Shown here: positions 8,549 through 50,701 of the stretch, in pieces | How positions within the stretch are numbered: the stretch's first letter is position 1 | Layout: the number at the start of each line of letters is the position of its first letter | IMG/VR virus record: IMGVR_UViG_3300048770_000009 | Span: 1-58,114 of that record | DNA from: a virus | Taxonomy: Duplodnaviria > Caudoviricetes | Length of the DNA: 58,114 bases | Reading direction: 5' to 3' (one strand) | The notes under the pieces: model-generated | What the model saw: only the letters and a program-made list of their open reading frames with translations | The model's database searches: none | Told to the model about the DNA's origin: nothing | Position numbers and translations under genes: made by a program

Positions 8549-8736
8549 TTTATTACCTCCGGTGGTCCTTCGATTAAATCCCACTCCCAATGGCAGTTGA
8601 AAGCTGATCTTGATCCTTCGGGGTCGCACTTGTAGATTCTGGTCCAGATTGTTCCATCGTCACATAGGGCCAGAAACTCGCCCTCGTACTCCGCCGTGGC
8701 CGGCGTCACCATAAGTTGAATGACTTTCCGTTTCAA
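8545..8736 (-). CDS. Small hypothetical protein between groES and groEL
   Basis: 63 aa (…FLALCDDGTIWTR…), with TTGA overlaps at both ends. Confidence 0.65.
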   Translation of the reverse strand: MKRKVIQLMVTPATAEYEGEFLALCDDGTIWTRIYKCDPEGSRSAFNCHWEWDLIEGPPEVIN

Positions 8737-26278: not shown

Positions 26279-26480
26279 ATGAGGTTTGCGTAGACATGAA
26301 AGCAATGAATTCACTCTGGATAAAGCAATTAGTATGGCCCCCGTGGGCAGAGCGATGCAGGCGAGACATTGCGTGGGGAATATGTATTCGCGCTGTGCAT
26401 CATTTAGCCATGAAACAGTCATACGATCATAACGATTTGGAAGCAGCGAAGTTGATTAACAGAATTGCCAAGGAGTTATC

Positions 26481-26699
26481 TTGATGAGCGAATATCCAGT
26501 AGGACACGCGACGCGCTATCCCACCATCGGAGGAATTCCTGTCTCCGTCCACATGGGCGGTAAATCTGCTTATAACCTCTTGACGGATCAAACTGTAACG
26601 ATTGGCGATGATCGTCCGGAAGTCCACGTGAACGCATTCGCCGTCGCCGAATTGGGCGATTTGATTGTTTGGAAAGACTACAAGGAGAACCATGAATAG
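26481..26699 (+). CDS. Small hypothetical protein
   Basis: AAGGAG RBS. Confidence 0.55.
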   Translation: MMSEYPVGHATRYPTIGGIPVSVHMGGKSAYNLLTDQTVTIGDDRPEVHVNAFAVAELGDLIVWKDYKENHE

Positions 26700-27039
26700 C
26701 AAGAACCAGGCCGAAAGCCTACAGGAGCGCGTCGGCGCCATCGCCAACGTGCCAGTCGCCACCGCAATCAACAACCTCCAAACTGAGTACATCGCCATCG
26801 GCAAGCGCCTGCGCGGCTACTCCATCCAGGTCCACGGCAGCATTCTCAACATGCTGCAAACTGAGTTCCAGCTCCGCCAGGACGAGACCAAGAACGCGAT
26901 CAGCGAGTTCCAGCACCAGGAAGCGGTGCGGCGCGAACACGAGGCGGCCGAGGCTCAGAAGAAACTGGAAGCCGAGCAGGATGCCATCGCTGAAGCCAAC
27001 CGGCCCAAGCTGGCTGTGGTGGGAGCACCAGTACAGTGA
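26692..27039 (+). CDS. Coiled-coil hypothetical protein
   Basis: AAGGAG RBS before ATG 26692; GC3-rich codons. Confidence 0.65.
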   Translation: MNSKNQAESLQERVGAIANVPVATAINNLQTEYIAIGKRLRGYSIQVHGSILNMLQTEFQLRQDETKNAISEFQHQEAVRREHEAAEAQKKLEAEQDAIAEANRPKLAVVGAPVQ

Positions 27040-27311
27040 CCAGTCCCGTCAGCCGTGCATACCTCATCGTCGAGATTGTGGGTCACCCGGAGATGGTCGA
27101 GCCTGAGATTCGCCGATTTCTCAAGCAGTGGCAATCGCAGAGTGCCCGCAGTATGGAGATCCCAGAAGCCACGCGCCACAGTTGCCTGGAGGTTCATATT
27201 GAGCTTTCCGACGGCGATTTAAGCGGGGATGTTGTGAGACTTCGCGCCGCACGCAAGCATACGACCTGCGAGATGTGCGAGTCGGACGAGCCTCTAGGGA
27301 GTGTCAGATGA
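27036..27311 (+). CDS. Hypothetical protein
   Basis: GTGA and ATGA overlaps. Confidence 0.5.
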   Translation: MTSPVSRAYLIVEIVGHPEMVEPEIRRFLKQWQSQSARSMEIPEATRHSCLEVHIELSDGDLSGDVVRLRAARKHTTCEMCESDEPLGSVR

Positions 27312-28825
27312 CAGCGCCCATAGCGCTATCGAGAGCGCAAGGCGACCAACTTAAGACCGTGCCGCCCGGCTTCCGTCTGTTCTTCTCGGTGCTGGCTAAT
27401 GCTTACTACCTCATGCCGCTCAAGTTGCTCCCAATCATCCTCTGCATGTTGACTATCGTGGCGCATAGCCAAACCTGCATCACCAATGCCCAGGTAACGC
27501 TGACCGGCAACCTCCGCAGCGCCAACGGCATTCCCTCCTCAAACTCCATCCTCACGCTGACCCCGAGCCAGCAAGGCCTCATCGCAGGATGTGGAGTCAA
27601 CCTCGCCACGGTCAACACGTGCGCGACATCGACCGATGGTTCCGTCGTCGGCGTCCAGAACCCCCAAACAGCGACAATCAACACCACCAGCGGTGGGGGA
27701 TCCCTGGGTTCTGGCGTCTACTACACGGTTTACGAGTGGTATGACGCTGCCAGCCACGTGACTCTGGTCAGCCCTGAGACCGCAACCAGTCTCGGCACTA
27801 CAGGTACGCTTGTGGTCAACCCACCATCGAGCGGCGTTCCGGCATTGGCAGTTGGGATGGATGTATTCATCTCCACTTCGAGCGGGACTGAGACACTGCA
27901 AGGTCAAACAACTGGGACGGCCTCTTTCGTCCAGTCCACCGCATTGACCTCTGGATCCAGTCCCGCCTCGACCAACACCACGCTGTGCCAAGTGGTGGCG
28001 AACGATGCAGTTTGGCCGACCGGCACCGGCTACAACGTGTCGATGGTCACTGTGAACGGCAATCCAGTTCCCAACTACCCGATGCAATGGCAGTTGCTCG
28101 GACCGGGCAGCACTTACAACCTATCGAACGGCCTGCCTTACTACCACGGCGTGGTCTTCTACCCCGTTCCGATCCTGTCTCAGCCAGCCAACCACGGACA
28201 GCAGAGCATCTCCGGCCCGCTGAACTTTGGAGGATACTACGTGACCGGCGTGGGCAAGCTCGGCGTCGGCACCAACTTCCCTGGCTGGGGCGTGGATGCA
28301 GAGGGAAGCGGGCTCGGTGCGTTTATCAATGCCGCGGGAGGCTATCTTCTTAATGGTTCTGGTGGAGTATCTGGCCAGTATCCATGCTCGGACGGCACTG
28401 CGATAGACCACTTCTGCACACTAAACACGACTTCGTATCAGACGATTGCCTCCAACGGCACAGCGCAGACCCAGCGCCCAACGCTCAATTTCAGTCCAGC
28501 ATTCTCTGTGACTGATTCCAGCTCGCCAGCGCAAACGACCATTGGAATCAACAAAGTGCAGTTGTCGCTTCCGGCAACGACTGTGAACGCCAACACCTGC
28601 ACAGCTCCAGCGACCGCGACACTGACCGGGGTAACCTCGACCTCGACGTTCTCAACAGCGTTCGCGACTAACCCGGTTGCGGCGGTTGGCTGGGGTGCAA
28701 ATGGCGGCCTGGTCGTCGAATTGTGGCCGGACGCCTCTCCCAATATGCTCGATTGGTCGATCTGCAATCAGACTGCATCGAACATCACCCCAACGGCTAT
28801 CGCGTTGAATGTAGGGGTGAACTGA
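27308..28825 (+). CDS. Secreted tail-fibre-like beta protein
   Basis: Start at 27308 or 27413. Signal (M)PLKLLPIILCMLTIVAHS-Q, Thr/Ser/Gly-rich, fibre motif KLGVGTNFP, 8 Cys in the mature chain. Confidence 0.7.
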   Translation: MTAPIALSRAQGDQLKTVPPGFRLFFSVLANAYYLMPLKLLPIILCMLTIVAHSQTCITNAQVTLTGNLRSANGIPSSNSILTLTPSQQGLIAGCGVNLATVNTCATSTDGSVVGVQNPQTATINTTSGGGSLGSGVYYTVYEWYDAASHVTLVSPETATSLGTTGTLVVNPPSSGVPALAVGMDVFISTSSGTETLQGQTTGTASFVQSTALTSGSSPASTNTTLCQVVANDAVWPTGTGYNVSMVTVNGNPVPNYPMQWQLLGPGSTYNLSNGLPYYHGVVFYPVPILSQPANHGQQSISGPLNFGGYYVTGVGKLGVGTNFPGWGVDAEGSGLGAFINAAGGYLLNGSGGVSGQYPCSDGTAIDHFCTLNTTSYQTIASNGTAQTQRPTLNFSPAFSVTDSSSPAQTTIGINKVQLSLPATTVNANTCTAPATATLTGVTSTSTFSTAFATNPVAAVGWGANGGLVVELWPDASPNMLDWSICNQTASNITPTAIALNVGVN

Positions 28826-29313
28826 TGCGCTGGCCTCTACTACTCTTGCTCTGTTGCGCTTCGGTGTTGGCGCAGGTTCCAGGATCTCCGGGAAGGACGA
28901 CATCCGGCGGCAACAACACCCACACTTTCACATTCTCGCCGGGGCTGGGCACGATCACGTGTAGCGGATCAACCTGTTCCGATACTTCCGGTTCGGTCTC
29001 TCCATCGTCTCAAGTGGTCTCAGGTAATCTCCATTTCAATTCGACCCATGACGCCAATTTCAACTTAGGTGGAGCATTTGGATCTGGAACAGGTCAGATA
29101 CAGGTGAGTTGCAACGGTGGCAGCACTTGGATGACGATAGCTTCCGGCAGTGGTAGCGTCGGCGGCGGATTGACCTACGGCTATTCCACGCCGGTCTGCT
29201 CAGGCCCCACCAACCTCAATACCCTGCTCTTCCGGTCGTTTCTGGGCGGCGGCGGGGCTTCGAGTTTCAATATGTCGTTTGAGTCGCCGTCATCGGTCGC
29301 GATTAGCTGGTAG
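28825..29313 (+). CDS. Secreted beta protein
   Basis: Signal MRWPLLLLLCCASVLA-Q; 4 mature Cys; TGATG overlap. Confidence 0.7.
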   Translation: MRWPLLLLLCCASVLAQVPGSPGRTTSGGNNTHTFTFSPGLGTITCSGSTCSDTSGSVSPSSQVVSGNLHFNSTHDANFNLGGAFGSGTGQIQVSCNGGSTWMTIASGSGSVGGGLTYGYSTPVCSGPTNLNTLLFRSFLGGGGASSFNMSFESPSSVAISW

Positions 29314-29360
29314 GCGGCAAGAAACCTCAACCATCAACCCCTCAAAGGAGCACCATCGCC

Positions 29361-30278
29361 ATGCGCAAAGCATTGTTCTCCATCGTCGCGCTGATCCTTG
29401 CCGCCATCTGCGCGGCCCCAGTGTCAGCGCAAACCGCCGTTACCCCGTTCACCGCGCCCTGGTACTACGCCACCAGCTTCCAACTCTGGTCGATCAACCA
29501 GCAGAGCCCCAACACGTACATCTTCCAGGGCCGCAGCCTTTGCAACAGCCAAGGGCAGAACCTCAACTTCTTCGTGTTCAACACCAATGCGCCTGTGCTG
29601 ATTGCGGACTCGAACTCCAGCAACTCGGAGGTTGTGACGCCATCGGCCATCGTGAATACCGCCGGCAGTTGCGGTGCGACCGTGGCGCCAAGCCACAATC
29701 ACTACACCTTCCAGATGAAATCAGGCACTGCCGGACTCCAAGAGGGCATCAACGCTCTCGACGGGCAGGGCGCATGGCCTGCGCTTTTGCTCTTGGATAA
29801 GAACTGGTGGACGATCGCCAACCAGATCCCTGGGACCACGGCGGCTACCATTCTCGGCGCGGCCAAGGGTGATGCTTCAGTCATGGTCGAGGACATCACC
29901 ACTCTTGGACCGATCTATTACGTGTGGAATGGCTCGGCGTATGCCTCTGGAACATGGGTCAACACCGCCCCGACCGCGGCGACAGGCGCGGCCGCAGGCA
30001 CCGCGACCAGCGAAGTTGCGACAGGCACCGCTCTCTCTGGCACCTATTCATTCACCACCGGCACCGCGACCACTGGCACTGTATTCACCGAGACTTGGGC
30101 GAACAGCGGCCAGTTCCAAGCTGCACCAGGCTCTTGCACGGTCACGAGCACTGGAGCGACAGCACCGCCAACCCTGACCGTGACGAACTCCTACTCAAGC
30201 CACGGCATTATGACGGTCTCTGTGGCCTCGGCGCTGGCCAGCACCACAGCGTACAGCTTTAGCTGGAACTGCAAGTAA
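29361..30278 (+). CDS. Secreted fibre-like protein, paralog 1
   Basis: Signal MRKALFSIVALILAAICAAPVSA-Q; SGTAGLQEGIN motif; AAGGAG RBS. Confidence 0.8.
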   Translation: MRKALFSIVALILAAICAAPVSAQTAVTPFTAPWYYATSFQLWSINQQSPNTYIFQGRSLCNSQGQNLNFFVFNTNAPVLIADSNSSNSEVVTPSAIVNTAGSCGATVAPSHNHYTFQMKSGTAGLQEGINALDGQGAWPALLLLDKNWWTIANQIPGTTAATILGAAKGDASVMVEDITTLGPIYYVWNGSAYASGTWVNTAPTAATGAAAGTATSEVATGTALSGTYSFTTGTATTGTVFTETWANSGQFQAAPGSCTVTSTGATAPPTLTVTNSYSSHGIMTVSVASALASTTAYSFSWNCK

Positions 30279-30304
30279 GCTCAACCAAGCCATCGAATGC
30301 ACCG

Positions 30305-30337
30305 GGCGGCCAGAATATGCACTGGCCGCCTTCTTTT
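30305..30337 (+). terminator. Putative intrinsic terminator
   Basis: GGCGGCCAG-N8-CTGGCCGCC followed by TTCTTTT. Confidence 0.65.
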
Positions 30338-30358
30338 ATGCAAAGGAGCAACATCGCC

Positions 30359-31162
30359 ATGAAAAGATTAGTATTGCTTGCAGCGTTTCTGGCTCTGCCA
30401 CTGGCGCTTGCTGCCCAAACCACCAGCGCAACAGCCAGCGTGACGAGCCCGGCCAACGGCCCAGCCAACCTCGCAGGATTGCTCTACGCTGCCAACTTCG
30501 CCCACTGGACCGCCTCACCGACCCCGCAGGGCACGCGCTGGGATAATCCCGGCCAGTGCTACGGCACGTCCGGCGGCCTGGTGTTCCCGCTCTACTCCAC
30601 CAGCGCGCCCATCACCATCGTGGATCTTGGCGTTCCGAGCAACACCGAGACGGTGACGCCGACCCTGGCTAGCTATCTTGGCTCCGGCTGCTCGGTTTCT
30701 TTGCCGGCTACCCATCCCCACTCCAACTACTACCTGCAATCTGGGACGCTCGGCCTCCAGGAAGCGCTGAACTTCGCCGGCTCGGCTCACTATGTCGTGG
30801 TCCTCACTCCAGACTGGCAGACCATGGGCGGCACAACCGGGATGATTACCAGCGCCACGGCCGGGACCAACACCACGATTCTGGATGCGCGCACATCGAC
30901 GCTGGTGCCGTACTCGGGATCAACCCCAGCATCAGGCAGCACCGGAACGGGAAAGCTTGTGCTTCAGACCAACCCAACTCTAATCGGTCCCACCAGCAAC
31001 ACCATTGTCCTCACCGCCGCGGCTCCCACAGTAGCGGCCTCACAGGTCGGTTTGGGCGGCACAACCGCTGCGGCCTCGAACTGCAACACCGTCGGCACAA
31101 GTCCTGCCGCCTGCCTGGTGGTAAACATTGCCGGCACCGTTCACTACATCCCCTACCAGTGA
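30359..31162 (+). CDS. Secreted fibre-like protein, paralog 2
   Basis: Signal MKRLVLLAAFLALPLALAA-Q; SGTLGLQEALN; fibre motif TGTGKLVLQTNPTL. Confidence 0.8.
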   Translation: MKRLVLLAAFLALPLALAAQTTSATASVTSPANGPANLAGLLYAANFAHWTASPTPQGTRWDNPGQCYGTSGGLVFPLYSTSAPITIVDLGVPSNTETVTPTLASYLGSGCSVSLPATHPHSNYYLQSGTLGLQEALNFAGSAHYVVVLTPDWQTMGGTTGMITSATAGTNTTILDARTSTLVPYSGSTPASGSTGTGKLVLQTNPTLIGPTSNTIVLTAAAPTVAASQVGLGGTTAAASNCNTVGTSPAACLVVNIAGTVHYIPYQ

Positions 31163-31166
31163 CCCC

Positions 31167-32387
31167 ATGAAAAAACTCATTCTTTGGCTTGCGATGATCG
31201 CGTTGGGCGCAGGGCAGTTGATCTCTGCGCAGTCTCCTGGGCAACCAACCAGGAACCCTGGCAACGATGCAGGCCTGCTTTACGCCTCCACTTTCGGCCT
31301 CTGGTCAATCCCTCAAGGTAATCAAGGCCAGTTCTCGTGGTCGGCGCCCTCTTTATGCACAACGAACGCCAACGGCATCCCGCTCAACCCAGTATTTGCC
31401 GTTGGAACCCCCATCTACATCAAAGATCAGGTTCCGGCCAACTCTGAAATCGTGGTTCCTACAGCGGTGACTGTCGGAGGCTTCGGCTGCTCGATCACCG
31501 TGAACCCAGTCAATCCACACAAAACATTCACACTCACATCGGCTACTGGTGGGCTCCAAGAAGCCATCAACTACGCCCACGGCCTTCCGTATGAGATTGT
31601 TCTAACGCCGGATTGGACACGGGTGGGCGGAACAACCGGCACTATTACGGCGGCGACCGGCATTACCAACATAAGCATCCTCGATGCGCGCACAGCTTGC
31701 CTGGTTCCCTATATCTGGAATGGCGCTGTTTACACCAATCAAGGGAACTTATGCAGTGGCGGCGGTGGGTTCACTATCAACTCCTTCACCGGCTGCGCTG
31801 GATCGCTTGAACTCGGGCAGACGGTCACGAATCCCACATGCGTGGCGACGTACACCGGGGTTCCGTCGAGCGCCAACATCACCAACACTGACTCGATTGA
31901 CTCGCCACTAGTCCTAAGTTCTCCATTCACAACCGGCACCATCGTTGGCAGCTTCCACCATTCCGCGATCGCAACGACGACTGTGACACTCACGGCGACT
32001 GGAGCTTCTACGCAGACCGCAACCCAGCAGTACACATGGCAGCCGCGCATCTTTGGCGGCGTAGGGACGGCCGGGGCGACCTCAACGGTGACCGCGAGCG
32101 ACACAACCGCCGTGCTGAGCACCAGCGACGCCCTGCCGAGCGCCGGCCTGGGCGCCGAGACGGTTGGACAGACCTTCGGGCCTTACACGCCGAGTGCGCA
32201 GAACGTCTACCTGCTGCTCTTGGGAGGCAGTCACACCTTCATCGACGCCGGCACCGGCTTCCCCTTTGCCTTCAATCCCCCCATTACAGTGACATTCGTC
32301 AATGAGTTTGGCGTGACGGTGACGATGTACCTGTACCAGAGCACCAACCCGCTCTACGGAACGTACACGCCAAAGGTGGCTAGCTAA
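31167..32387 (+). CDS. Secreted fibre-like protein, paralog 3
   Basis: Signal MKKLILWLAMIALGAGQLISA-Q; SATGGLQEAIN. Confidence 0.8.
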   Translation: MKKLILWLAMIALGAGQLISAQSPGQPTRNPGNDAGLLYASTFGLWSIPQGNQGQFSWSAPSLCTTNANGIPLNPVFAVGTPIYIKDQVPANSEIVVPTAVTVGGFGCSITVNPVNPHKTFTLTSATGGLQEAINYAHGLPYEIVLTPDWTRVGGTTGTITAATGITNISILDARTACLVPYIWNGAVYTNQGNLCSGGGGFTINSFTGCAGSLELGQTVTNPTCVATYTGVPSSANITNTDSIDSPLVLSSPFTTGTIVGSFHHSAIATTTVTLTATGASTQTATQQYTWQPRIFGGVGTAGATSTVTASDTTAVLSTSDALPSAGLGAETVGQTFGPYTPSAQNVYLLLLGGSHTFIDAGTGFPFAFNPPITVTFVNEFGVTVTMYLYQSTNPLYGTYTPKVAS

Positions 32388-32388
32388 T

Positions 32389-35300
32389 ATGAAAAATCTG
32401 TCGAAACTGTTGATTCTCGCCATTTTGGCCCCTTGCGCCCTCGCGCAGGTTCCAGCACCGCAGATCCCATTGACCGGCAACATCGGCTCGGGCGGCGTCT
32501 TCCCGAATCGCAATCCGGGAGTTATTTCATTCACATCTGACGCAAATCACACGATGGTCTATCCCGAAATGAGCGCCGGTTTTATCAAAGTGATTAGCTC
32601 GGTCTCGCTCACCGCAACACGAAGTCTTGTGGCCCCCCAGGCAGCAGGCTTCCAATTCACCATCGAGAACGCTACCACCGGAAGCCAGTCTATTCAGGTT
32701 ATCGGCGTGACTGGAACCGGTGTGACGATTACAAATGGCACCACTGTCACGGTGGTCAGCGACGGGACGAACTTCGTGCAGTCAGGAGGAATCAGCGGTG
32801 TTATTTCGATACCCGGTGGTGGCACAGGTGCGACCACGGCCTATGGCGCGGCGACAAACCTCGGGGTTCCGCAATGGACAATCGGAGTGGGCGCTCCCTC
32901 GGCGACGTGCTCGGCAATCGCAAACAATGGTACTTTCTATACGAGCAGCACATCGGAAATCTTCCAGTGTTCAAATGTGACAGGCACGTATCAGTGGAGT
33001 CAGCTTGGACCCACGCTTAACTGCGCGGCGGCATCGGTCTACAGCAACATTTTGTGCTACGGCGGCATCGCCGACTTGCAGCCATCCTTTGGATACATGA
33101 GCTTTGGCTGGTCTAGCGGGGGATATGCTGTTAACGTCACAGGCTCACTTGACGGTTACTCTTGGAATTTCACGTCTGCCGACGTGGGCAAATACATCTC
33201 ATTTAACAAAAACTCAGGAGCTTGGACGGGGGGCTTGCCTTTCGTTGCGAACTCCATCACGACCGCTAACACCGCCAAAATTGTGTCAGTTATTGACGCC
33301 ACCCATTTTACAGTGGATCGGCAGTTCCAGACCACGGACTCAGCCTATGGCATCTGGGGCACGGATAACACCCCCGCTGCCCATGCTTGTTACACAGCAG
33401 TTGTCCAGGGCAACGGCGGAACTTGTGCTTGGCTGGCGGGCCACTATATGCTTGCCACCTATGACCATGACGCTAATGGAAATGTTGTCTACGCCTATGG
33501 TGGTCTTGCTCAAGACTCAGGCGATTATCAGACTAACGCAGGTGGCTCTGGAGCGACGGTCTCTTGTACCACTGTATCCGGACATCTTAACGCTTGCACC
33601 GTAACTGGCGGGGGTACAAACTACCCCGCCTCGAATACAGAAATTCTGGATTTTGGACAGAGTGCTTCTAGCTGGCTTGGATGCCCAACTATTTACGCTG
33701 GTCCGTGCGGTGGTGAGTTCGCTACAGTTACAACTGACTCCAGCGGGCACGTGCAGAACCCTGTCACAATCGTCTATGCCGGTTTTGGTCTAACCGGCAC
33801 AGTAGCTCCAAACGTAATTCCGACTGGCGGAGACGGGGAAGCTGCAACCTGCTCGTTGACTGGCGGCACCTGCGGAACCCCGACCATCACCAATGCTGGC
33901 GGCGGACACCCAACTTCCCAAACTAATTTCCTTGCGATTCACGCTTTCAATGCTGGCGGCTCAACTTGCTCCACTGTCGGCGGCTATGCTGGAACCAACT
34001 TCGTCGGCGTGGGTACAGCCTCATCGAACTCCTCTGGCGGCATTTCCTCTGCCGTGTGGACGACCGCTCCGACAGGATGCGGCTCTGTTGCCCCAACTAT
34101 TGTCTTTGGCCCCTTCGCTTGCTGGGATTCCGGCACGTCCAAGTTTGATGCTCAGTGTACCAACCTATCCCCACTTATCCCCCCGGCTATCCCGATTCAG
34201 GTAGCTCTGGTATCAGGAGCATCTACGTTCGCCCCGACCGGGTCAGCGCTACAGGGTGCCTCCGTCTTTAGCACGTGGGATGGGGTGACTGTTGATACCC
34301 CTACTCCAGGCGTGTTGCAAACTCAATCAGCAATGTTCGGAGGACCGTATAGCCGAGAGGACGTGGGTAATCTGGAAATAGACTCTGGATTTATCGGGCT
34401 GTGGGTAACCAACAACGCCAACAAGGGAAACCAGCACGACATGGTTTTTGCAACAGGTATCGGTATCTTGAGCGCGTCCACCGATCTTGGACTGAAAGTT
34501 AGCAATCTGGAGTTTGACTCAGGCGCTCCCTACGTTAATGGTGGAACATGGAGCCACCGCTCAGACTTCCCGGCTGGCGCGGGTGGGATCAACGATTTTG
34601 AAGGTTTTGACAACATGGTAGTCGAGCCTTCGGCATATAACTCGGTGTACGCCAACCTGGACACCTGGTTTGACAAGGCTGTGTGGCACTCCGACTTTAC
34701 CGGAGACGCCGTGGATATGCCTGAGACTTGCGCTACCCCAATGGGCATTGCACAGCGTCAGACAGGACCGAGCTTTAGCACGCCGCAGGGCGCGAACGCC
34801 ATGTGCTACAAAGGCATCACGGGTTTTGGGTATCTTAATCTCGCCCGCGATAACCGCAACGCTGGAGGATCACCCCTCACCAACCTTAACGGCAAGTATT
34901 TGTACCGTCCGATCTTTTACGGGTCTCTCGGGCCGTCGCCTGTATTCAACTTCGATTGCGAAGGATGCACCACGCTCGTTTCGGACCCATACCGTGTAGA
35001 GTCTGTGCAGGAAGGCGCGATGGAGTTCTCGGGTGGCACTTGGGCGAACATCAACAAGGTGTATTGGAGCGGAAGCCCAATCTTGCAGCCCTTGTGGAAT
35101 TTCCAAGGGCTATCTACCTATGGCACTGCCGGTTCTCCAATCGGGACGGCATGGAGCGAAATCGGCGCGTCTGCCCCAGTGAACGCTCAGCCTGTGCAGA
35201 ACCTGAACATTCAGGCTCAGATTCAAAACCAATTTGGTGAAGCGATCACCTTCAACCCGGCAACTGGAATTCCCGGTGAGATTGACTTCCTGAACCAGAG

Positions 35301-37935
35301 CAACACAATTACACCTGAGTTGGGCGGTGTTATCAAGCCGAACGGGTATAACAACGATGGCTATGGACTCTACGACGGCTTTGGCAACAAGATTGTAGAC
35401 ATCCATCACAGCCAAATCAGCTTGCCTCAACAGGCGGCTGGCTCTGGGCTGCATCAGTGCTTACACACGGATGACAATGGAATTGTAACGGGCACAGGCT
35501 CCGACTGCGGCTCTGGCGGCGGCGGGGGCGTACCCAGCGTCAACGGCGTCACCACTGCAGTAACGATAGCAGCCGGGGCAGGCATAGCGGTCAGCACTGT
35601 TGGAAGCACAGTCAGCATTGCAAGCACTGGCGGCGGGGGTGGGTATGTCAGCCCACTGGCAGGAAAAACGCTTGTGGATATGGGTGACTCACGGCAGATT
35701 GTAGCGGGTAGCTGTCAAGTGGGGGCATTGAGTGAAGATGCAATCTCAGGCTGCACCATTTCAAGCCATATCGCAACATGCACAGAGGCTAACACCAACA
35801 ATCAGGTCGTGAATAATGCGCTGCTGCTCTCTACTTTTGGCGGCTCTTATACAGCACTCAACGGTTTTGTGGCGACAGTTACAGGGATGCCAGGGACCAA
35901 TCAATTCACCTTTGACGCTACATCTACAGGAGTACCCGATGGCTCGACCGGGGCAGGATATGAGTCCTGCAAATATGCGCTTCCGCAACAGCAGCGCGAT
36001 GATCCATTGTATGCTGGTGTAACCATCGTGCAAAAATCAGCAGGTGGAGATAGCGCCGCGAATGAAGCTGCCACCTTTTCCACGAATCCCAACTTTCCAA
36101 GCGTCACGCCGGGTAGCACTATCCTTGTATCACAGCTTGGGTCGCAGGATTGTCTTAGCGGCACCGCACAGGCAACCACCGAAGCAAATCTTTTCTCGTA
36201 TATGCAACAGGTTCACGCCAAGGGTTATCTCTACACGGCGGAAACACTGCTACCAGTTCCAAGCAATGTTTATGCTTCTGCAGCTGCTAACTGCACACAG
36301 ACTATCAGCACGTGGTTGAGTCAACAGTCCAAGACATCGTTGAATTCCAACCCAGCGGTTTGCACTACAGCAGGAGTAGCAGGACAACCCGGTCAGACAG
36401 CGGGAAGCAACATTTGCGGATATTATTGGAACAGTTTTGCTGATCCAGCCGCATTGTTACCCTTTTATCCTAATAGGTATTTTTTCTGTGACTATCCAGA
36501 CAACCCCGCGACCAATTGCGAAAACCTGCATCTTACCGATCCCGGAGTATCGCGGTTAGAGGCTGCAATCTCCACTGCCACCATCTCAAACACCATCCAG
36601 CCGGGTTTAGGCGACATACAGCAGGTGGTTAGCTCGGATCAGGCAGCAATGCTGAATATGAGAGTCAGCACAGTTAACAACTCTGCGGGTTCCGGACCTG
36701 TGGCATCGTTTGGGATCACTCTGCCAAACTACAATTTTCCCAGCGAGTATACCCAAGGCGGTTATTCGGCTATGCAATTTTATGCGCCGTACGTGGATCA
36801 ACTAGTAACGGATATGCCCGGTGACTCGGCGCTGTGTTTTGACAAGAATTTATTGCTTACACCTTACCTAAACGGCGATAGCGGCGATGTATGCACGGTC
36901 CACGATCCCTCTAACATACAGACAGAAATCCTAGTCTCCGGTCCGACAGCAGCCACCGCGCTGATGCCAGATGCGAACCTGTCAGCGCACAATGTTTCAA
37001 TCAACGGTGCACTGAATCTTCTAACCAATCCTGTAGACTTGGCGCTGAACAATCAGAGCCAGACGTTTAACGGCACGCAGACTGTTGTAGCTCCCGATGC
37101 TAACAACGCCGCCGCCATTTTCAGCGCGAACACAACTGGCATTTTGCAGCCAGTATTTGTGCAGGGAAGTTCGGATGGTACAGGGACTCTCCCCAATCCG
37201 GTGACGGCTGGAAATGCCATCGTTGTAAATTGCGGAAATGCTGAGGGGGGATTACCGGGTATAACAGACAATTTAGGGAACACCTACACAACAGCAGCAA
37301 GTGTAATTATAAGTCCCGCCAGTTACCACGATGTATGGTCAGCAGTTGCTTGCAATGTCAACGGTGGTACAATTACAGTTTCCTCAACGGTATCTCCATA
37401 TCCAGGTTGTGGGACTAATGGTATGAGCGTAGCTGAGTACACCAACGTGGCTGCATCATCCTCTTGTGTGGATGGTAGTGGTGTTGCAATGTTGACGACA
37501 TACAATCCACTTGGTGTCGGAATCCAATGGACAGCTACGACGCCAACCTTGACCACGACTCAACCAAACGATAGGTTGATTGCAGCGTATGCGCGTGTAG
37601 ATAGTGGTATCCCCATATACTTAGGTAAATTTGCTACGCCAGATACCTCCTCGATTTACACGTCAATGTCATCAGCCCCGGCTTATGCAGCGGGTGTGCA
37701 AAAAGGCGTATCTGTCTCCTATCCATACGACGGATATGGTGGATTGATGCTGTTTGCGCTCAAAGGTAAAGCAATCTCCGGCGCAGCAGCACCAGCGGTA
37801 CGGTCACAGGGGGATATTACTCTTAGCGACTCAGCTATCAATGGTGTGATCTGGAAAGACACGGTAGATGGAAGTTGCAGACGGTTCCAGCTAAGCGGCG
37901 GCATTCTTGTCGGCACCGAAATACCTTGTCCATAA
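32389..37935 (+). CDS. Giant secreted tailspike-like protein with SGNH-hydrolase-like domain
   Basis: Signal MKNLSKLLILAILAPCALA-Q. Fibre motifs GGGTGATTAYGAATNLG and VPSVNG, tailspike-type NILCYGG...GTDNTPA, SGNH blocks GDS / GSQD / NLH. 40 Cys in the mature chain. Confidence 0.75.
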   Translation: MKNLSKLLILAILAPCALAQVPAPQIPLTGNIGSGGVFPNRNPGVISFTSDANHTMVYPEMSAGFIKVISSVSLTATRSLVAPQAAGFQFTIENATTGSQSIQVIGVTGTGVTITNGTTVTVVSDGTNFVQSGGISGVISIPGGGTGATTAYGAATNLGVPQWTIGVGAPSATCSAIANNGTFYTSSTSEIFQCSNVTGTYQWSQLGPTLNCAAASVYSNILCYGGIADLQPSFGYMSFGWSSGGYAVNVTGSLDGYSWNFTSADVGKYISFNKNSGAWTGGLPFVANSITTANTAKIVSVIDATHFTVDRQFQTTDSAYGIWGTDNTPAAHACYTAVVQGNGGTCAWLAGHYMLATYDHDANGNVVYAYGGLAQDSGDYQTNAGGSGATVSCTTVSGHLNACTVTGGGTNYPASNTEILDFGQSASSWLGCPTIYAGPCGGEFATVTTDSSGHVQNPVTIVYAGFGLTGTVAPNVIPTGGDGEAATCSLTGGTCGTPTITNAGGGHPTSQTNFLAIHAFNAGGSTCSTVGGYAGTNFVGVGTASSNSSGGISSAVWTTAPTGCGSVAPTIVFGPFACWDSGTSKFDAQCTNLSPLIPPAIPIQVALVSGASTFAPTGSALQGASVFSTWDGVTVDTPTPGVLQTQSAMFGGPYSREDVGNLEIDSGFIGLWVTNNANKGNQHDMVFATGIGILSASTDLGLKVSNLEFDSGAPYVNGGTWSHRSDFPAGAGGINDFEGFDNMVVEPSAYNSVYANLDTWFDKAVWHSDFTGDAVDMPETCATPMGIAQRQTGPSFSTPQGANAMCYKGITGFGYLNLARDNRNAGGSPLTNLNGKYLYRPIFYGSLGPSPVFNFDCEGCTTLVSDPYRVESVQEGAMEFSGGTWANINKVYWSGSPILQPLWNFQGLSTYGTAGSPIGTAWSEIGASAPVNAQPVQNLNIQAQIQNQFGEAITFNPATGIPGEIDFLNQSNTITPELGGVIKPNGYNNDGYGLYDGFGNKIVDIHHSQISLPQQAAGSGLHQCLHTDDNGIVTGTGSDCGSGGGGGVPSVNGVTTAVTIAAGAGIAVSTVGSTVSIASTGGGGGYVSPLAGKTLVDMGDSRQIVAGSCQVGALSEDAISGCTISSHIATCTEANTNNQVVNNALLLSTFGGSYTALNGFVATVTGMPGTNQFTFDATSTGVPDGSTGAGYESCKYALPQQQRDDPLYAGVTIVQKSAGGDSAANEAATFSTNPNFPSVTPGSTILVSQLGSQDCLSGTAQATTEANLFSYMQQVHAKGYLYTAETLLPVPSNVYASAAANCTQTISTWLSQQSKTSLNSNPAVCTTAGVAGQPGQTAGSNICGYYWNSFADPAALLPFYPNRYFFCDYPDNPATNCENLHLTDPGVSRLEAAISTATISNTIQPGLGDIQQVVSSDQAAMLNMRVSTVNNSAGSGPVASFGITLPNYNFPSEYTQGGYSAMQFYAPYVDQLVTDMPGDSALCFDKNLLLTPYLNGDSGDVCTVHDPSNIQTEILVSGPTAATALMPDANLSAHNVSINGALNLLTNPVDLALNNQSQTFNGTQTVVAPDANNAAAIFSANTTGILQPVFVQGSSDGTGTLPNPVTAGNAIVVNCGNAEGGLPGITDNLGNTYTTAASVIISPASYHDVWSAVACNVNGGTITVSSTVSPYPGCGTNGMSVAEYTNVAASSSCVDGSGVAMLTTYNPLGVGIQWTATTPTLTTTQPNDRLIAAYARVDSGIPIYLGKFATPDTSSIYTSMSSAPAYAAGVQKGVSVSYPYDGYGGLMLFALKGKAISGAAAPAVRSQGDITLSDSAINGVIWKDTVDGSCRRFQLSGGILVGTEIPCP

Positions 37936-37947
37936 GGAGGACAAAAA

Positions 37948-38280
37948 ATGAAAAAAGTACTTTTACTCGCGGTTCTGTTTGTGGCTGTTCTCGGCAAGGC
38001 ATCTACCCCTGCCCAAACAGCACCTGTTGCACCGCCCCTTGCAGCTTGTGCCTTTAACCATCCCGAATCTAAGCCGACAATGTTTGTGCCTCGCATCCAG
38101 AAATCCTATGGGCTGCTCACTCTCAACAGTGCTGGTGATCCTATTCTCATTCACCCGGCTAACAACACAGTTGCAGTTCCAACTTCAGTCACAACAACCC
38201 CTTGCGTTACGGGTGAGAAAAGCCTGGTCTATCTGCTGACCGTATCAGTTGCACAGCAGTTGAACACGGGCACGAAGTAA
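37948..38280 (+). CDS. Small secreted protein
   Basis: AGGAGG RBS; signal MKKVLLLAVLFVAVLGKA...; 2 Cys. Confidence 0.7.
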   Translation: MKKVLLLAVLFVAVLGKASTPAQTAPVAPPLAACAFNHPESKPTMFVPRIQKSYGLLTLNSAGDPILIHPANNTVAVPTSVTTTPCVTGEKSLVYLLTVSVAQQLNTGTK

Positions 38281-39264: not shown

Positions 39265-39441
39265 ATGAGTGTCAGACCGAACATTGCGCTACCCGATGAC
39301 CTGCACCGCAGGATGAAGATGCAGGCTATCGATCAAGGTGTAACCGTGCAGGCGTACATCGTGAACTCCATCTGGAAAATCGTGCTTCACGATGAGGCTT
39401 CGGTCCACCAGCGCAAGACCGCGAAGGAGCCGACGAAATGA
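39265..39441 (+). CDS. Ribbon-helix-helix regulator (58 aa, leaderless)
   Basis: MSVRPNIALPDDLHRRMKMQAIDQGVTVQAYIVNSI; ATGA overlap with the holin candidate. Confidence 0.75.
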   Translation: MSVRPNIALPDDLHRRMKMQAIDQGVTVQAYIVNSIWKIVLHDEASVHQRKTAKEPTK

Positions 39442-39761
39442 ACTGGAAGCCTTGGCTATACTCGCTGATCTCCGCTGGCATCGGCGGCGCATCAAGTGCC
39501 CTCGGTGGCGTGATCGTCGCGCCCTCGGTATTCAACTTCACGCCGACCGGCTGGGCGAACATCGGCAAGCTGGCGCTATTCGGTTTTGCGGTGCCAGTGC
39601 TGGCTTACCTTAAGCAATCGCCGCTGCCGCCCGAGTCGCAGGTGACGGTGGTGGAGACAAAGCAAACCGAGACGACCACAGTCACACCGCCGCCAGTAGC
39701 ATCCAAGTATGCGCCCGGTCTGCCGGTTGACGAGCAGGGCAGACTGAAACAGAACCCGTAA
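39438..39761 (+). CDS. Putative holin
   Basis: Two hydrophobic segments in 107 aa, ending LAYLKQSPLP; AAGGAG RBS. Confidence 0.55.
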   Translation: MNWKPWLYSLISAGIGGASSALGGVIVAPSVFNFTPTGWANIGKLALFGFAVPVLAYLKQSPLPPESQVTVVETKQTETTTVTPPPVASKYAPGLPVDEQGRLKQNP

Positions 39762-40057: not shown

Positions 40058-40597
40058 ATGTGCAAAAACGCAACGAAGTCCGCAGCCGCTTTGATGGCCG
40101 CAATCGAACCGACAATCAAGTCGCTGCTCGCCGCCACCGGCCAACTCAACACCCCGAACGGCATCGCGGCCATGAACGCCTATGATGCGGCTCTGCTCGC
40201 CGTTCAGAACTGGACTCCCAGCACCACCGCGCAGAACGTGCTCCAACTCATGAACGCCTTCACGGCGGTATTCGACACGCTTCCGCTTCCGCCGAATGTT
40301 GCGCTTTACGTGAACATCATCACGGCTGGCATCACTGCGGTCATCGCTATCCTGACGGCCAACTCGCCGGCCCCTGCTTCTCTCCTTACTCATGAAGAGA
40401 CTCAGGCCATGCACCAGGCGGCAGTTGCGGCAGACGCAGCGGCGGCAGACGCAGCGGCGGCAGACGCAGCGGCGAAGGTTGCGGTGCTCGTACCTGGCTT
40501 CAAGCGCAGCATCTTCCATTCGCCTGAGAGCCAGTACAACACGGCATGGAACAACGCTTGCGACACGAACCCGGTCGAGGGCATCGGCAAGGTGTAG
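40058..40597 (+). CDS. Hydrophobic Ala-rich protein
   Basis: GAAAGGA RBS; hydrophobic helix VALYVNIITAGITAVIAIL. Confidence 0.65.
   Translation: MCKNATKSAAALMAAIEPTIKSLLAATGQLNTPNGIAAMNAYDAALLAVQNWTPSTTAQNVLQLMNAFTAVFDTLPLPPNVALYVNIITAGITAVIAILTANSPAPASLLTHEETQAMHQAAVAADAAAADAAAADAAAKVAVLVPGFKRSIFHSPESQYNTAWNNACDTNPVEGIGKV
40427..40471. repeat. 3 x 15-nt tandem repeat (AADAA)
   Basis: GCGGCAGACGCAGCG x3. Confidence 0.9.
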
Positions 40598-40806
40598 CCA
40601 GCCAGAGACGGCACAGTTTGCGCGGGCCGAGGACTGGTAGTTTGCTTTCGAGCTTCTACCTTAGCGTGATCCGGCCCGCGCAATTCAGAGGCACCCATGA
40701 CGCCCGACCAGATCGCCCAACTCGAATCCGCGCTCTGCTGGGTGGCGTTCGTAGCGGCTCTGGCGTTTACGGCGGTGACCGGAATGAACAAGGGATGGTG
40801 GGACGA

Positions 40807-41397
40807 ATGACAACTGAAGTAAGCATATCTCCAGGCAGAAAGCCGATTCTCAACCTCGACTTTGACGGCGTGTGCCATCTGTACACGTCGGGGTGGAAGG
40901 GCGCGGCTAACATTCCCGATGCGCCAACGGAAGGTATGTGGGAAGCCCTCCGCTCCTATCAAGCCATTTTTGAAGTCGATATATTCAGCTCTCGGAGCAA
41001 CCAAGAGGGCGGCATTGAAGCCATGAAAAATTGGTTCTACAGGAACCTGCCATCGGATGAATACCTTTCCGTAGTCGAGGCTCTTGTATTCCCAGTTGAC
41101 AAACCTCCTGCCTTTATCGGCATCGATGATCGAGTGGTAACCTTTCGGGGAGCATGGCCAGATGCCCAGGAGCTGCGGGCGTTCAAAACATGGACGCAAA
41201 ATCCGCTGGGAGCCACCAACAATCATCCTCGCGGCAAACTTAACGAGAGCGACGAAGGGGAGTTAAGGCTGGCTGTTTTCGAGAAAGACGGCACGGTGGT
41301 TATCGACTTCGGAAAGCCTACGGCTTGGATTGGTCTCGATGCAGAAACCGCCAGGAGTTTTGCCAACCTCATTGTCAAATATGCGAATAATTTATGA
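40807..41397 (+). CDS. HAD-superfamily phosphatase fused to a small C-terminal domain
   Basis: Motif I LDFDGV, motif II FSSR, motif IV IDDR. Confidence 0.75.
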   Translation: MTTEVSISPGRKPILNLDFDGVCHLYTSGWKGAANIPDAPTEGMWEALRSYQAIFEVDIFSSRSNQEGGIEAMKNWFYRNLPSDEYLSVVEALVFPVDKPPAFIGIDDRVVTFRGAWPDAQELRAFKTWTQNPLGATNNHPRGKLNESDEGELRLAVFEKDGTVVIDFGKPTAWIGLDAETARSFANLIVKYANNL

Positions 41398-41455: not shown

Positions 41456-41719
41456 ATGGCCCCGTACATCCCATGGAAGGTGCGCAAGGCGGCAGAGGCA
41501 GCTAGAGCCGCGCAGCCACGCCAAGTATGGTGTACTCGATACCGCGAAGCACGCCAAGCGAAACGAGAAGATGCGGCATTCGAGAGCGGGATTGAGAAGC
41601 TCGGCGAATATCTGGCTGCATGGACATGGCTTGACGAGATCCCGCAGCCGCTATGGTTCCCGCGCTGTGTGAGCATCGAGTGCCGTCCGGACCAGCAGAT
41701 TTTCATGGGGATGCGATGA
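41456..41719 (+). CDS. Hypothetical protein
   Basis: GAGGT RBS; ATGA overlap. Confidence 0.5.
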   Translation: MAPYIPWKVRKAAEAARAAQPRQVWCTRYREARQAKREDAAFESGIEKLGEYLAAWTWLDEIPQPLWFPRCVSIECRPDQQIFMGMR

Positions 41720-42297
41720 AGAGACTCGCCCTCATCGCGCTCCTTGCCGTTCCCTGCCACGCGCAGCAGCCGGGACTTGCCAAGCTCCAGCAGGCGGTTA
41801 CGGACCTAACGGCGGCGGTCCAGAGGCTCACGGCGGCGCAACCGTCACCAGGCGCAGGTCTGCTGCCCGGTCAGACAGGACTCTTTGCCGCGTTTCCCAA
41901 GGGCCAGTTCGGAATGCCTACGACCTTGCCAGCGGGCTTGGTGCCGGTCTGGACGACGAATGACCCCATCAACTGCCCACTGACGCCAGCCGTGGCCGAT
42001 TCCAACGCATCGCAGATGGTTGTGACCGTGCCAGCGAACCTGATCCCGAGCGCCGGCCAGGTCTGCATCCTGACCGTGACCTCGCCGGACGGGACCGGCG
42101 CAAGCAGCATTGTGATTCCATTCACGGTGCCGGGGCAGGGACCGTTCAACGCGAACATACTCAACTGGCAAGTAGCCCCGCAGGTGATTACGGGCTACTA
42201 TGTTTACCAGATCGCGCTGCCGACACCGCCCGCGCCTGGGCAGTCGGTTGCGCGGCTGGAGAAGAGGGGAAATGCTGAGCGAACCGTTAGGCCGTGA
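41716..42297 (+). CDS. Secreted protein with Ig-like domain
   Basis: Signal MKRLALIALLAVPCHA-Q; VVTVPANLI..AG...LTVTSPDG (IPT/TIG-like); 2 mature Cys. Confidence 0.65.
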   Translation: MKRLALIALLAVPCHAQQPGLAKLQQAVTDLTAAVQRLTAAQPSPGAGLLPGQTGLFAAFPKGQFGMPTTLPAGLVPVWTTNDPINCPLTPAVADSNASQMVVTVPANLIPSAGQVCILTVTSPDGTGASSIVIPFTVPGQGPFNANILNWQVAPQVITGYYVYQIALPTPPAPGQSVARLEKRGNAERTVRP

Positions 42298-42996: not shown

Positions 42997-43305
42997 CCCG
43001 CGCACAAACCGGGGTCGCAAGGCCCCGGAAGTTCTGGATTCGCGCAACTGGCGCACGGAAGAGGGTGAAGCCATTGACAAACAATACTCAGAACCGACTC
43101 CGAATTTTGGCATGGACAATCTTCCTATGGGAGGCATGTTTGTTTCCCCAATGGGCTTTAGCTGCCCAGAGGGTACACATCTCGCGGCACTCCCCGACAC
43201 GGATAAGAAAGTCTGCCAACCGAATCCAGGTTCTGATTGACGCCGCTGTATAGGCACCGTATTACAGGGCGCAACCAACACGGTGCGGAAGTTCTGGAGC
43301 ACAAT

Positions 43306-43704
43306 ATGTGGTGGACCTTTGAAATCCCGACCGGCCGCTACTTCAACCCATCCGGTGCCTACGTCTCGACGGGCTATGCTGGGAACGGACCAGATAAAGA
43401 TAATGTAGACTCTGAGGCTATCGTTGGCCATGGCCCGCTGCCAGAAGCGACCTACGCGATGGGAAAATGGTTCGATGATCCCGAAAAAGGACCGATCGTT
43501 TGCCATCTCACTCCGTTGCCGGGAAGCGAGATGTACGACCGTGACGCTTTGAGTTTTATGATTCACGGCGATTCGCTTCGGCATCCTGGCTGGGCTTCCG
43601 ATGGCTGCTGTGTCGCCGACCATCCCACGCGGCTTGCAATGTCCACGTCGCCCTGCCAGTTCATCAGGACGGTAAAACAATTCACGCCTACCACCGGAGA
43701 ATAA
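43306..43704 (+). CDS. Tlde1/DUF2778-type L,D-transpeptidase-fold protein, putative endolysin
   Basis: GYAG.G....N...GPLP...Y...FMIHGDS...GWASDGC (His...Ser-x-Gly-Cys catalytic motif). GGAG RBS. Confidence 0.75.
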   Translation: MWWTFEIPTGRYFNPSGAYVSTGYAGNGPDKDNVDSEAIVGHGPLPEATYAMGKWFDDPEKGPIVCHLTPLPGSEMYDRDALSFMIHGDSLRHPGWASDGCCVADHPTRLAMSTSPCQFIRTVKQFTPTTGE

Positions 43705-47438: not shown

Positions 47439-47867
47439 ATGCAAAAGCAGTTCAACGACTCTATAATCTACGTCCGGAACGGCAAGCCCCTTCCGGCCAT
47501 CGTGCTCGCGTCCCAGGCAACAGCCGAAGGCGAGCTTCTCACTCTGCTCTACGCAGATCCAGTAAACGGTCCTCAGTTGCTTGCGCAGGGCACCACGCGC
47601 GGCATTGCGCAGGTCCAGAAGGCAGTTGCGCCGTTCGTCGAGGGGAACATGTTCGGCTGGAAGCCATGGGGAGAGGTCGCCCCAACTGAACCTCCCACCG
47701 CCCCCGAGCAACTCGACGAGGCGCAAGGCCCGGTGGAACCCGGCGCGCCAGAGTCGCCACACGCGATTGAGCCGATCATGCCGACCGACCCCACTTCGTA
47801 TGAGAGCGTTGAAGCCGCCAAGGCCGCCGCGCTTGCCGCCGAGAACCCGGAATCAAAACCGGAATAA
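47439..47867 (+). CDS. Hypothetical virion-module protein
   Basis: GGGAG RBS; lies between portal and scaffold. Confidence 0.65.
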   Translation: MQKQFNDSIIYVRNGKPLPAIVLASQATAEGELLTLLYADPVNGPQLLAQGTTRGIAQVQKAVAPFVEGNMFGWKPWGEVAPTEPPTAPEQLDEAQGPVEPGAPESPHAIEPIMPTDPTSYESVEAAKAAALAAENPESKPE

Positions 47868-49721: not shown

Positions 49722-49787
49722 CAAGAAAACCCAAAGAGGGGGCTTAGTAGCGAAATGCGAAAGGCCCCGAGAGTTTTAAGGAGCAGG

Positions 49788-50516: not shown

Positions 50517-50701
50517 TTAACCATCGACGTATTACCCGCCCGACGGGGTTAGGTCAAAGCACACCATTTTAGAGAGTCAGTTTTCGGTAACGTTCTCACA
50601 TCCAAAAGCCGCATCAGCGCATTGCTGGCGCGCGACAATCACTCCAAGAAACCTGAACCACCGCGAGCACGCCTCTGTGCGTCCGCGAAGGAGTGTATAC
50701 C

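Follow-up and report, generated by a model that had tools for sequence, protein, structure and literature searches.

The phage DNA analysed here, the linear record IMGVR_UViG_3300048770_000009 of IMG/VR (58,114 bp, the whole of which forms our window; CheckV completeness estimate 60%), raises the question of why a run of late genes for fibre- and tailspike-like proteins in a tailed phage should begin with secretion signals. By the usual teaching, tailed phages are assembled entirely in the cytoplasm, and the solved phage tailspikes are, to our knowledge, cytoplasmic proteins without signal peptides. A first-pass annotation, made from the sequence alone, had described seven consecutive signal-bearing genes between 27.4 and 38.3 kb and an eighth at 41716, here named g1 to g8, and had proposed that their products are receptor-binding appendages which are exported, folded oxidatively in the periplasm and added to virions at or after lysis. 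Our analysis partly supports this interpretation: the signals appear to be a conserved property of large protein families related to phage receptor-binding proteins (RBPs), while the chances that the proteins join virions at lysis seem to us evenly balanced.

We screened the open reading frames (ORFs) of the window for signal peptides by a crude rule of our own, based on charge, a 10-residue hydrophobic window and the -3/-1 rule. Nine of the 61 ORFs were flagged, namely all of g1 to g8 and a minus-strand ORF of 125 amino acids (26427-26804) that is probably not a gene; none of the ORFs taken for portal, capsid or other structural proteins was among them, in agreement with the first-pass annotation. 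Each of the eight proteins begins with Met followed by Lys or Arg, continues with a hydrophobic core and a small-x-small motif, and then has Gln, the predicted sites before this residue being AHS, VLA, VSA, LAA, ISA, ALA, TPA and CHA. The charge of the n-region, a core of 8-15 residues and the small residues at -3 and -1 are in all eight those expected of Sec and signal peptidase I substrates. As examples, g1 (27413-28825, + strand) starts with the signal or anchor MPLKLLPIILCMLTIVAHS followed by QTC..., the small g2 (28825-29313, +) has the signal MRWPLLLLLCCASVLA with a predicted cut before Q, and in g8 (41716-42297, +), located in the small-gene region that separates the cluster from the head genes, the signal MKRLALIALLAVPCHA would be cut before QQPG. 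The start of g1 is ambiguous between 27413 and 27308, the latter being the choice of the first-pass annotation and adding 35 amino acids ahead of the hydrophobic segment. We rejected the possibility of twin-arginine translocation (Tat) substrates, as the n-regions are MK, MRK, MKR, MKK and MKN and hold no S/T-R-R-x-F-L-K motif. Lipoproteins were rejected as well. The lipobox has the consensus [LVI][ASTVI][GAS]C, and no lipobox is present: the near cases LAPC in g6 and AVPC in g8 have Pro at -1, and g1 to g5 and g7 have no Cys at the lipobox position.

Homologs of g1, g3, g4, g5 and g6 found in nine IMG/VR loci all have a signal, with divergent signal sequences. By the crude rule, 106 of the best 120 of 279 g5 homologs are signal-positive, as are 129 of 150 g6 homologs among the matches listed (residues 1-1200 as query, 704 matches at E<=1e-3), and a hydrophobic N-terminus is present in 110 of the best 120 of 355 g1 homologs. 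We aligned 102 g6-type N-termini on their conserved PQ motif and found an entropy of 2.3-3.6 bits in the signal versus 0-1.6 bits in the first 12 mature positions, the mature start reading Q-I-P-A-P-Q-I-P-L-T-G-N-I-G; Ala occupies -1 in 65 and Gln occupies +1 in 70 of 98 g6-type relatives. Moreover, the signal-less homologs P0158, P0214, P0246, P0240, P0251 and P0255 start exactly at the predicted cleavage site or no more than a few residues from it, and two of them, P0158 and P0246, begin with MAQI..., retaining the Gln (a search of IMG/VR for the genomic context of P0246 gave no match). These family statistics rule out a chance origin of the signals and indicate that they are real, under selection and a property of a large family.

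The largest product of the cluster, g6 (32389-37935, +; 1848 amino acids), consists of the signal (residues 1-19), an N-domain (~20-135), a neck (~135-235), a right-handed beta-helix (~235-1010) and a C-terminal part of 800 amino acids. An AlphaFold2 (AF2) model of residues 1-1200 had a mean predicted local distance difference test score (pLDDT) of 73, being confident at 40-132 and 235-1010, where in the latter segment the pLDDT was mostly above 90, and of low confidence in the neck (134-233). With VIA-align the beta-helix matched the tailspikes of Sf6, CBA120 TSP2, K5A lyase, Depo32, DpK2 and ORF18 of Geobacillus virus E2 (Z 17-22, 250-314 aligned residues; in all, tailspikes or not, 223 chains at Z>=8), and in a Foldseek search Klebsiella phage depolymerases led the matches (top 7vul, E 2.4e-4). 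When compared with the beta-helix tailspikes as a class (Sf6, HK620, CBA120 TSP2, K5A lyase and Klebsiella Depo32/DpK2), residues 220-1010 superpose at Z 19-21 over ~250-300 residues, the helix scoring Z 19-22 against the Sf6, CBA120, K5A and Klebsiella phage tailspikes, and g6 shares with them an N-terminal adaptor domain followed by a predicted trimeric neck as well as the position in a late operon; it differs from them by its Sec-type signal and by its 40 pairwise-covarying cysteines. When residues 21-250 were modelled in three copies from our own alignment, the binding score was 0.71, the best of 3 controls reaching 0.01; the runs agreed in at least 58% of contacts with a partner pLDDT of at least 67, and the interface ran through the neck. 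In a calibration carried out on two copies, the mark was reached by 20 of 30 pair-solved and 1 of 23 single-chain-solved proteins. The N-terminal part of g6 is thus predicted to be a homotrimer, and the fold check proposed along with the first-pass annotation came out as a tailspike-type helix. Searches with phmmer against PDB sequences gave nothing for g6, and an ESM Atlas search with residues 1040-1848 gave no usable match; from reading the sequence we suspect a candidate SGNH esterase (GDS motif) in this segment.

The N-domain of g6 heads hundreds of proteins of 116-1453 amino acids with unrelated C-termini. An IMG/VR scan returned 295 relatives; of the 80 retained, 15 passed the signal rule and 4 (L035-L038) failed it marginally, these signal-bearing relatives having a GC content of 0.50-0.58, and the other 61 comprised 59 full-length, signal-less proteins (GC 0.34-0.62) and two cut by contig ends. 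The signal-less proteins start with MASTY.NNLRL..G..GTWG, instead of which g6 and the 129 of 150 listed relatives have a signal and QIPAPQ.... Despite this exchange the two groups are homologous over a core corresponding to g6 residues ~44-135 (hhalign probability 99.8%, E 1.4e-28, 92 columns, 42% identity). A signal-less member matched tail fibre, tail spike or tail protein annotations in 6 of 7 records, the seventh being hypothetical; the annotated records belong to the Roseobacter phages CRP-901 and CRP-902, the pelagiphage HTVC023P, the Synechococcus phage MinM2 and a Planktothrix phage (E 1e-36 to 8e-7). Thus, the N-domain core of this tail-fibre family is homologous to that of g6, the link running through IMG/VR proteins; the CRP-902/HTVC023P-type proteins have no signal and 0-4 Cys, whereas in the soil lineage to which the window belongs the first ~45 residues are replaced by a signal and QIPAPQIPLTGNIG.... 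Direct tblastn searches of cultured phages with g6 residues 1-156, g5 and g1 gave no match.

The first-pass annotation had counted 8, 4, 4, 4, 6, 40, 2 and 2 cysteines in the mature chains of g1 to g8, and our recount was identical. The probability that all eight counts are even by chance is 1 in 256. Among signal-positive homologs, the mature chain has an even count in 100 of 106 cases for g5, in 104 of 129 for g6 and in 103 of 110 for g1, where the g5 set has one common conserved domain and is therefore not made up of independent cases, and the g6 set has very diverse C-termini. In a g6 alignment of 50 rows (A2) we examined eight adjacent cysteine pairs between residues 334 and 860, and found one member of a sequential pair alone in 10 of 203 cells versus 73 of 162 when the pairing was shifted by one Cys, and such pairwise gain and loss is the signature of local disulfides. 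By comparison, the counts are 1-5 Cys in the six signal-less N-domain homologs, which are 288-1419 residues long, and 0-4 in the 59 full-length signal-less IMG/VR relatives. The putative local disulfides of the g6 family therefore appear to track the presence of the signal. Signal-bearing and signal-less homologs together amount to an experiment of nature, in which one domain occurs both ways, exported and not exported, and cysteines come with export only. A sub-family with a Cys-x4-Cys motif (GNIGCQGFPC) just after the mature N-terminus comprises P0183, P0238 and P0239 and 39 of the 102 g6-type N-termini; other members have no Cys there.

Three further proteins of the cluster, g3 (29361-30278, +), g4 (30359-31162, +) and g5 (31167-32387, +), are paralogous, having in common a signal and an N-domain of ~190 amino acids, here called type A (BLASTP E 1e-11 to 1e-21). 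In g4 this domain is followed by a variable C-terminus with the motif TGTGKLVLQTNPTL; the fibre/tailspike motifs quoted by the first-pass annotation are indeed present, in g4 and g6. The relative G002 has a g3 homolog that keeps the signal peptide, and a g4 homolog of which the first ~204 amino acids are 71-73% identical and the C-terminus is different. The AF2 model of g5 (mean pLDDT 86) revealed an alpha/beta N-domain (~35-195) and two immunoglobulin (Ig)-like domains (~200-406), and had 48 matches in BFVD at E<=1e-3 (top 8.8e-15), many of them unnamed and several named as tail fibre, including crAss-like phage proteins; as BFVD holds viral proteins only, these matches show likeness, not exclusivity. 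Against the PDB, Foldseek found only weak Ig-like matches for the g5 model (best E 1.2e-3), and the N-part of K1 lyase (7w1c), which aligned with g5 over 71 residues at a VIA Z of at most 7.4, was too weak for use. For the fibre-like g1, relatives matched the putative tail fibre domain Gp53-like_C (PF21882) with 60 (P0288), 39.8 (P0302) and 26.2 bits (P0278) at a cut-off of 24.9, and g1 itself and the 98%-identical P0271 gave no Pfam match. Searches of Pfam and PHROGs with g1 to g8 gave no match, apart from a weak and meaningless one.

The cluster also behaves like a receptor-binding module across related phages. Between the window and G002 the other late proteins are 70-87% identical over their full length or nearly so, apart from a 116-amino-acid protein at 40%, whereas within the cluster similarity is confined to the N-domains (56-71%), the C-termini having been exchanged and a counterpart of g6 being absent; between these close relatives, no module other than the signal-positive cluster is mosaic. 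Modules of the cluster are common to the genomes G003 (completeness 90%) and G004 (47,988 bp with terminal repeats) at 57-81% identity, although the core proteins of these two are just 22-32% identical, and both carry signal-positive genes in tandem, three and four in number, respectively, which close the structural module at its distal end. Of 19 further IMG/VR loci (L025-L043), which had been chosen for carrying one such gene, 18 have two or more signal-positive ORFs in tandem, with a recurring order of two signal-less proteins of ~500-600 amino acids, a 276-amino-acid signal-positive protein and a large signal-positive protein. No signal-less paralog of the cluster N-domains was found in the window, G002, G003 or G004. 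Such mosaicism, module sharing and tandem layout are the behaviour of a receptor-binding module, and a host-derived cargo island was rejected on the grounds that the genes lie in a late operon and their modules are common to several phage backbones. With tail-region proteins from G002 and G003 as queries, PHROGs yielded hardly any matches. In G004 an HNH-like ORF (L012 12344-12841) is wedged between two signal-positive fibre genes.

The host is probably an acidobacterium and the source a soil phage. The GC content of the window is 0.58, and the only long genomic match of the N-domain in 185,579 species genomes was to an Edaphobacter metagenome-assembled genome (MAG), where a signal-positive homolog of 972 amino acids adjoins an integrase. 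In 301 genomes sampled from the order of this MAG, the Terriglobales, we found homologs in 5, the four large ones being signal-bearing. The Edaphobacter island (L021 7799-8365, 13295-14545) contains serine recombinase, primase-like, AlpA-like and tyrosine integrase genes, and may be a satellite or remnant with its own fibre. As to the Gln at +1, present in 8 of 8 proteins of the window and in most g6-type relatives, the first-pass annotation had reported it for the fibre-like genes, and it looks like a wider trait: in a 400-kb part of one Terriglobales-order genome (G072, L110-L129), scored by the crude rule with no control genome, a candidate site is followed by Gln in 18 of the 42 signal-like ORFs, versus 4% Gln overall, and signal-less fibre homologs keep the residue (MAQIP...). 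Because of this count, the +1 Gln is probably a general convention of the host and not specific to fibres. The host clues thus point to Acidobacteria and not to Bacteroidota. The so-called Q-rule has been published as specific to Bacteroidetes, in a paper whose available text does not contain the word Acidobacteria (PMC5837995); the present counts hint that it may extend to Acidobacteria.

We propose that the cluster holds the genes for the receptor-binding apparatus of a tailed phage, probably a tail-tube-less (podovirus-like) one, and that this apparatus is made as Sec preproteins and joined to virions at lysis, a reading whose chances of being right or wrong we rate as equal. It would comprise the giant trimeric tailspike g6, the fibre-like g1, g3, g4 and g5 with N-terminal adaptor domains, and the accessory proteins g2, g7 and g8. 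Kinship of the cluster proteins with RBPs is supported by the N-domain homology, the beta-helix, the BFVD matches and Gp53-like_C in g1 relatives, which upholds the fibre/tailspike assignment of the first-pass annotation. Predicted Sec export, signal removal before Gln and oxidative folding with local disulfides are well supported by the conserved signals and the even, covarying cysteines. For attachment to the virion at or after lysis we see the balance as level. In the proposed pathway, each protein would cross the inner membrane unfolded via Sec, signal peptidase I would cut before Gln, and folding, trimerisation and intrachain disulfide formation would take place in the oxidising periplasm. 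Since head and tail assembly takes place in the cytoplasm, particles and fibres would not come together until a canonical holin has breached the inner membrane and the cell lyses; docking on the tail would then be through the highly conserved mature N-terminus (QIPAPQIPLTGNIG... for g6). A holin candidate of 107 amino acids with two hydrophobic stretches lies at 39438-39761 (+; recognised from its sequence, no family match), and an endolysin candidate at 43237-43704 (+) is Tlde1-like (L,D-peptidase fold), matching Pfam Tlde1_dom with E 1.4e-6 and 29.2 bits, below the 30.1-bit cut-off, and phrog_24118 with E 1.2e-18. The latter has no signal, which suggests a large-hole holin of the canonical kind; such a holin would allow particles to mix with the contents of the periplasm. 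More broadly, a lineage of soil phages, with hundreds of protein clusters, at least two unrelated backbones and probably Acidobacteria as hosts, might export its RBPs and attach them at lysis; we advance this tentatively, at somewhat less than even chances.

Several points weigh against attachment to virions. We know of no tailed phage that adds exported fibres; mixing at lysis would be brief and dilute, and a g6 trimer of ~570 kDa is large for the periplasm. Enzymes that bacteria ordinarily secrete have the beta-helix fold as well, and AlgE epimerases, alginate lyases and polygalacturonases score equal to tailspikes against the g6 helix; the PDB matches of the type-A N-domain are weak (best VIA Z 7.4). 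The Edaphobacter homolog stands beside an integrase and a primase-like gene with no head genes visible. The hydrophobic segments of the g1 family are often 18-22 residues long and preceded by long n-regions, and may be uncleaved anchors. Finally, part of the late region lies outside the window: comparison with G002 indicates that ~7 kb is absent between the two ends of the window, a segment that in G002 codes for proteins of 353, 128, 146, 338 and 547 amino acids and the N-part of a 1987-amino-acid protein. The claim of the first-pass annotation that there is no signal-less fibre gene therefore stands for N-domain paralogs in the window, and is weakened by these ~7 kb, seen only in G002. The real adsorption device could be one of the 353-, 338- and 547-amino-acid proteins of G002 or the signal-less 1021-amino-acid virion protein of the window (54799-57864), which has no assignment.

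According to the main rival, the cluster proteins are secreted, non-virion derivatives of RBPs, exported and perhaps passed on by a type II system, which act as free depolymerases or surface remodellers that remove or change exopolysaccharide or O-antigen on the infected or lysogenic cell and so free the progeny, destroy the receptor or exclude rival phages, adsorption being left to a signal-less protein. Its topology is unproblematic, the g6 helix matches secreted polysaccharide enzymes as well as tailspikes, signal-less virion proteins without assignment do exist, and Terriglobales-order genomes hold signal-positive homologs, one of which lies in a small island where no head genes are visible. 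WceF, a Tat-exported glycanase of a bacterial exopolysaccharide (EPS) cluster, is a published case of a tailspike-like bacterial enzyme that leaves the cytoplasm (PMC7949094, available passages), and Q-rule proteins encoded by Porphyromonas gingivalis prophages are read by their authors, in the available passages, as modifiers of the host surface (PMC10367356). Free secretion, however, leaves unexplained why tail-fibre-type N-domains keep a near-invariant mature N-terminus in hundreds of variants, why signal-less copies of the N-domain are absent from near-complete genomes, and why the sole mosaic, host-range-like module is the signal-positive cluster. We hold it to be possible, though on the whole unlikely.

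Another explanation is a membrane-anchored assembly, in which the N-termini, especially those of the g1 family, are uncleaved signal anchors, or in which the virion contains lipid. The long h-regions and n-regions of the g1 family fit such anchors, and signal-arrest-release (SAR) endolysins provide a precedent for phage proteins that are tethered and later released (PMC6116005, available passages). Yet the h-regions of g2 to g8 and of most g5 and g6 homologs are short, with Ala frequent at -1 and Gln at +1, and signal-less homologs begin at or near the cleavage site. Nor did we see any hallmark of a membrane virus, the small terminase subunit TerS (3474-4088, +), the large subunit TerL (4092-5633, +) and a weak family match to an HK97-type major head protein (50693-52006, +) together marking an ordinary tailed phage; we consider anchoring improbable. 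It is very improbable that there is no export at all, with hydrophobic N-termini that are structural, assembly by the conventional cytoplasmic route and cysteines oxidised after release, because all eight proteins have the n-h-c architecture with AxA then Q, a property kept while the sequence drifts, signal-less homologs are Cys-poor and lack the whole segment, and the even, pairwise-covarying cysteines follow the presence of the signal.

The proposal of exported fibres that join virions at lysis can be set beside several known systems. The receptor-binding protein g3p of filamentous phages is exported by Sec, contains disulfide bonds and is added to the virion outside the cytoplasm; inoviruses, however, assemble by extrusion at the membrane, whereas the present phage is terminase-packaged, HK97-type and tailed. 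Signal peptides are also known on phage morons. WceF of Pantoea stewartii (PDB 6tgf) is a trimeric, exported, tailspike-like beta-helix with Z 18.5 to the g6 model, and differs in being exported folded by a Tat signal, whereas the window signals have no twin-arginine, and in being the product of a chromosomal EPS-cluster gene without a phage adaptor domain (PMC7949094, available passages). The P. gingivalis prophage proteins are likewise encoded by phages and cut by signal peptidase I so as to leave Gln at the N-terminus; they come from five genes of unknown function in a Bacteroidota host, and the available passages of that paper draw no link to fibres (Matrishin et al. 2023, PMC10367356). 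Endolysins of the Sec-exported and SAR types (fOg44 Lys44; P1 Lyz type) are late phage proteins that pass through the host Sec system before lysis, but they are lysis enzymes and not virion parts (PMC6116005, available passages). Full-text searches of the literature, which did not cover supplementary files, found no report of Sec signals on tail fibres or tailspikes of tailed phages, and full-text searches likewise found none contrasting signal-bearing, Cys-rich with signal-less, Cys-poor fibre homologs.

There is a substantial chance that the assembly route proposed here is new. If it is correct, it would amount to a two-compartment assembly pathway undescribed for Caudoviricetes, with an at- or post-lysis step relying on host Sec, signal peptidase and Dsb, and hence with new host-factor dependencies and defence targets. 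A signal peptide would no longer be grounds to exclude metagenomic proteins from virion or RBP predictions. Export of RBPs may be adaptive in yielding fibres that are cross-linked by oxidation and hardened against acid and proteases, and disulfide-stapled RBPs and depolymerases of acidic soils would be attractive as stable enzymes. Should the proteins instead be secreted freely, phages secreting batteries of RBP-derived enzymes would still be notable and would bear on exopolysaccharide-rich soil hosts.

The remaining features of the cluster concern its layout. Intergenic gaps across g1 to g7 range from -1 to 80 nt, the start of g2 and the stop of g1 overlapping by one base, and AAGGAG-type ribosome sites with correct spacing precede g3, g4, g6 and g7 (TAAGGAGG at g7), with none at g1 and g5. 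Between g3 and g4, a terminator-like hairpin of 10 pairs, 8 of them G-C, is followed by a T-rich tail (30304-30331, +; a consensus match only), and promoter and terminator scans of the region gave no enrichment over shuffles. The small, signal-bearing g7 (37948-38280, +) lies directly 3' of g6, and it and g2 are small signal-positive ORFs at the usual location of fibre chaperones; in related loci such ORFs are likewise found 3' of the large one. Judged by its position, g7 may be a periplasmic assembly factor. The GC content falls to 0.50 at 36001-38000, covering the C-terminal third of g6 and g7, versus 0.55-0.61 elsewhere, which fits a recent horizontal acquisition of that module.

Elsewhere in the window, three proteins of the virion region are free of cysteine, at 16-3474 (+; 0 in 1152 residues), 47973-49721 (+; 0 in 582) and 47439-47867 (+; 0 in 142), in contrast to the Cys-rich exported set. 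Searches with phmmer against PDB sequences gave nothing for the 1021- and 865-amino-acid proteins and only noise for the 582-amino-acid protein, and a tRNA search of the window found none. Between the 582-amino-acid virion protein and the major-head candidate lies a T5orf172/MUG113 gene of the GIY-YIG-like homing-endonuclease type (49755-50516, +). The minus strand codes for DnaB, a RecT/YqaJ pair, an SbcC-like ATPase and a full-length GroEL/Cpn60-type chaperonin (6869-8629, -; Pfam Cpn60_TCP1 E 3e-65); such a chaperonin is uncommon in phages. Weak PHROG matches to phosphoheptose isomerase (phrog_1238) were found at 40546-41397 (+) of the window and at L019:11530-17493 of G002, and the available passages of the P. 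gingivalis prophage paper highlight the same class of lipopolysaccharide-modifying moron (PMC10367356).

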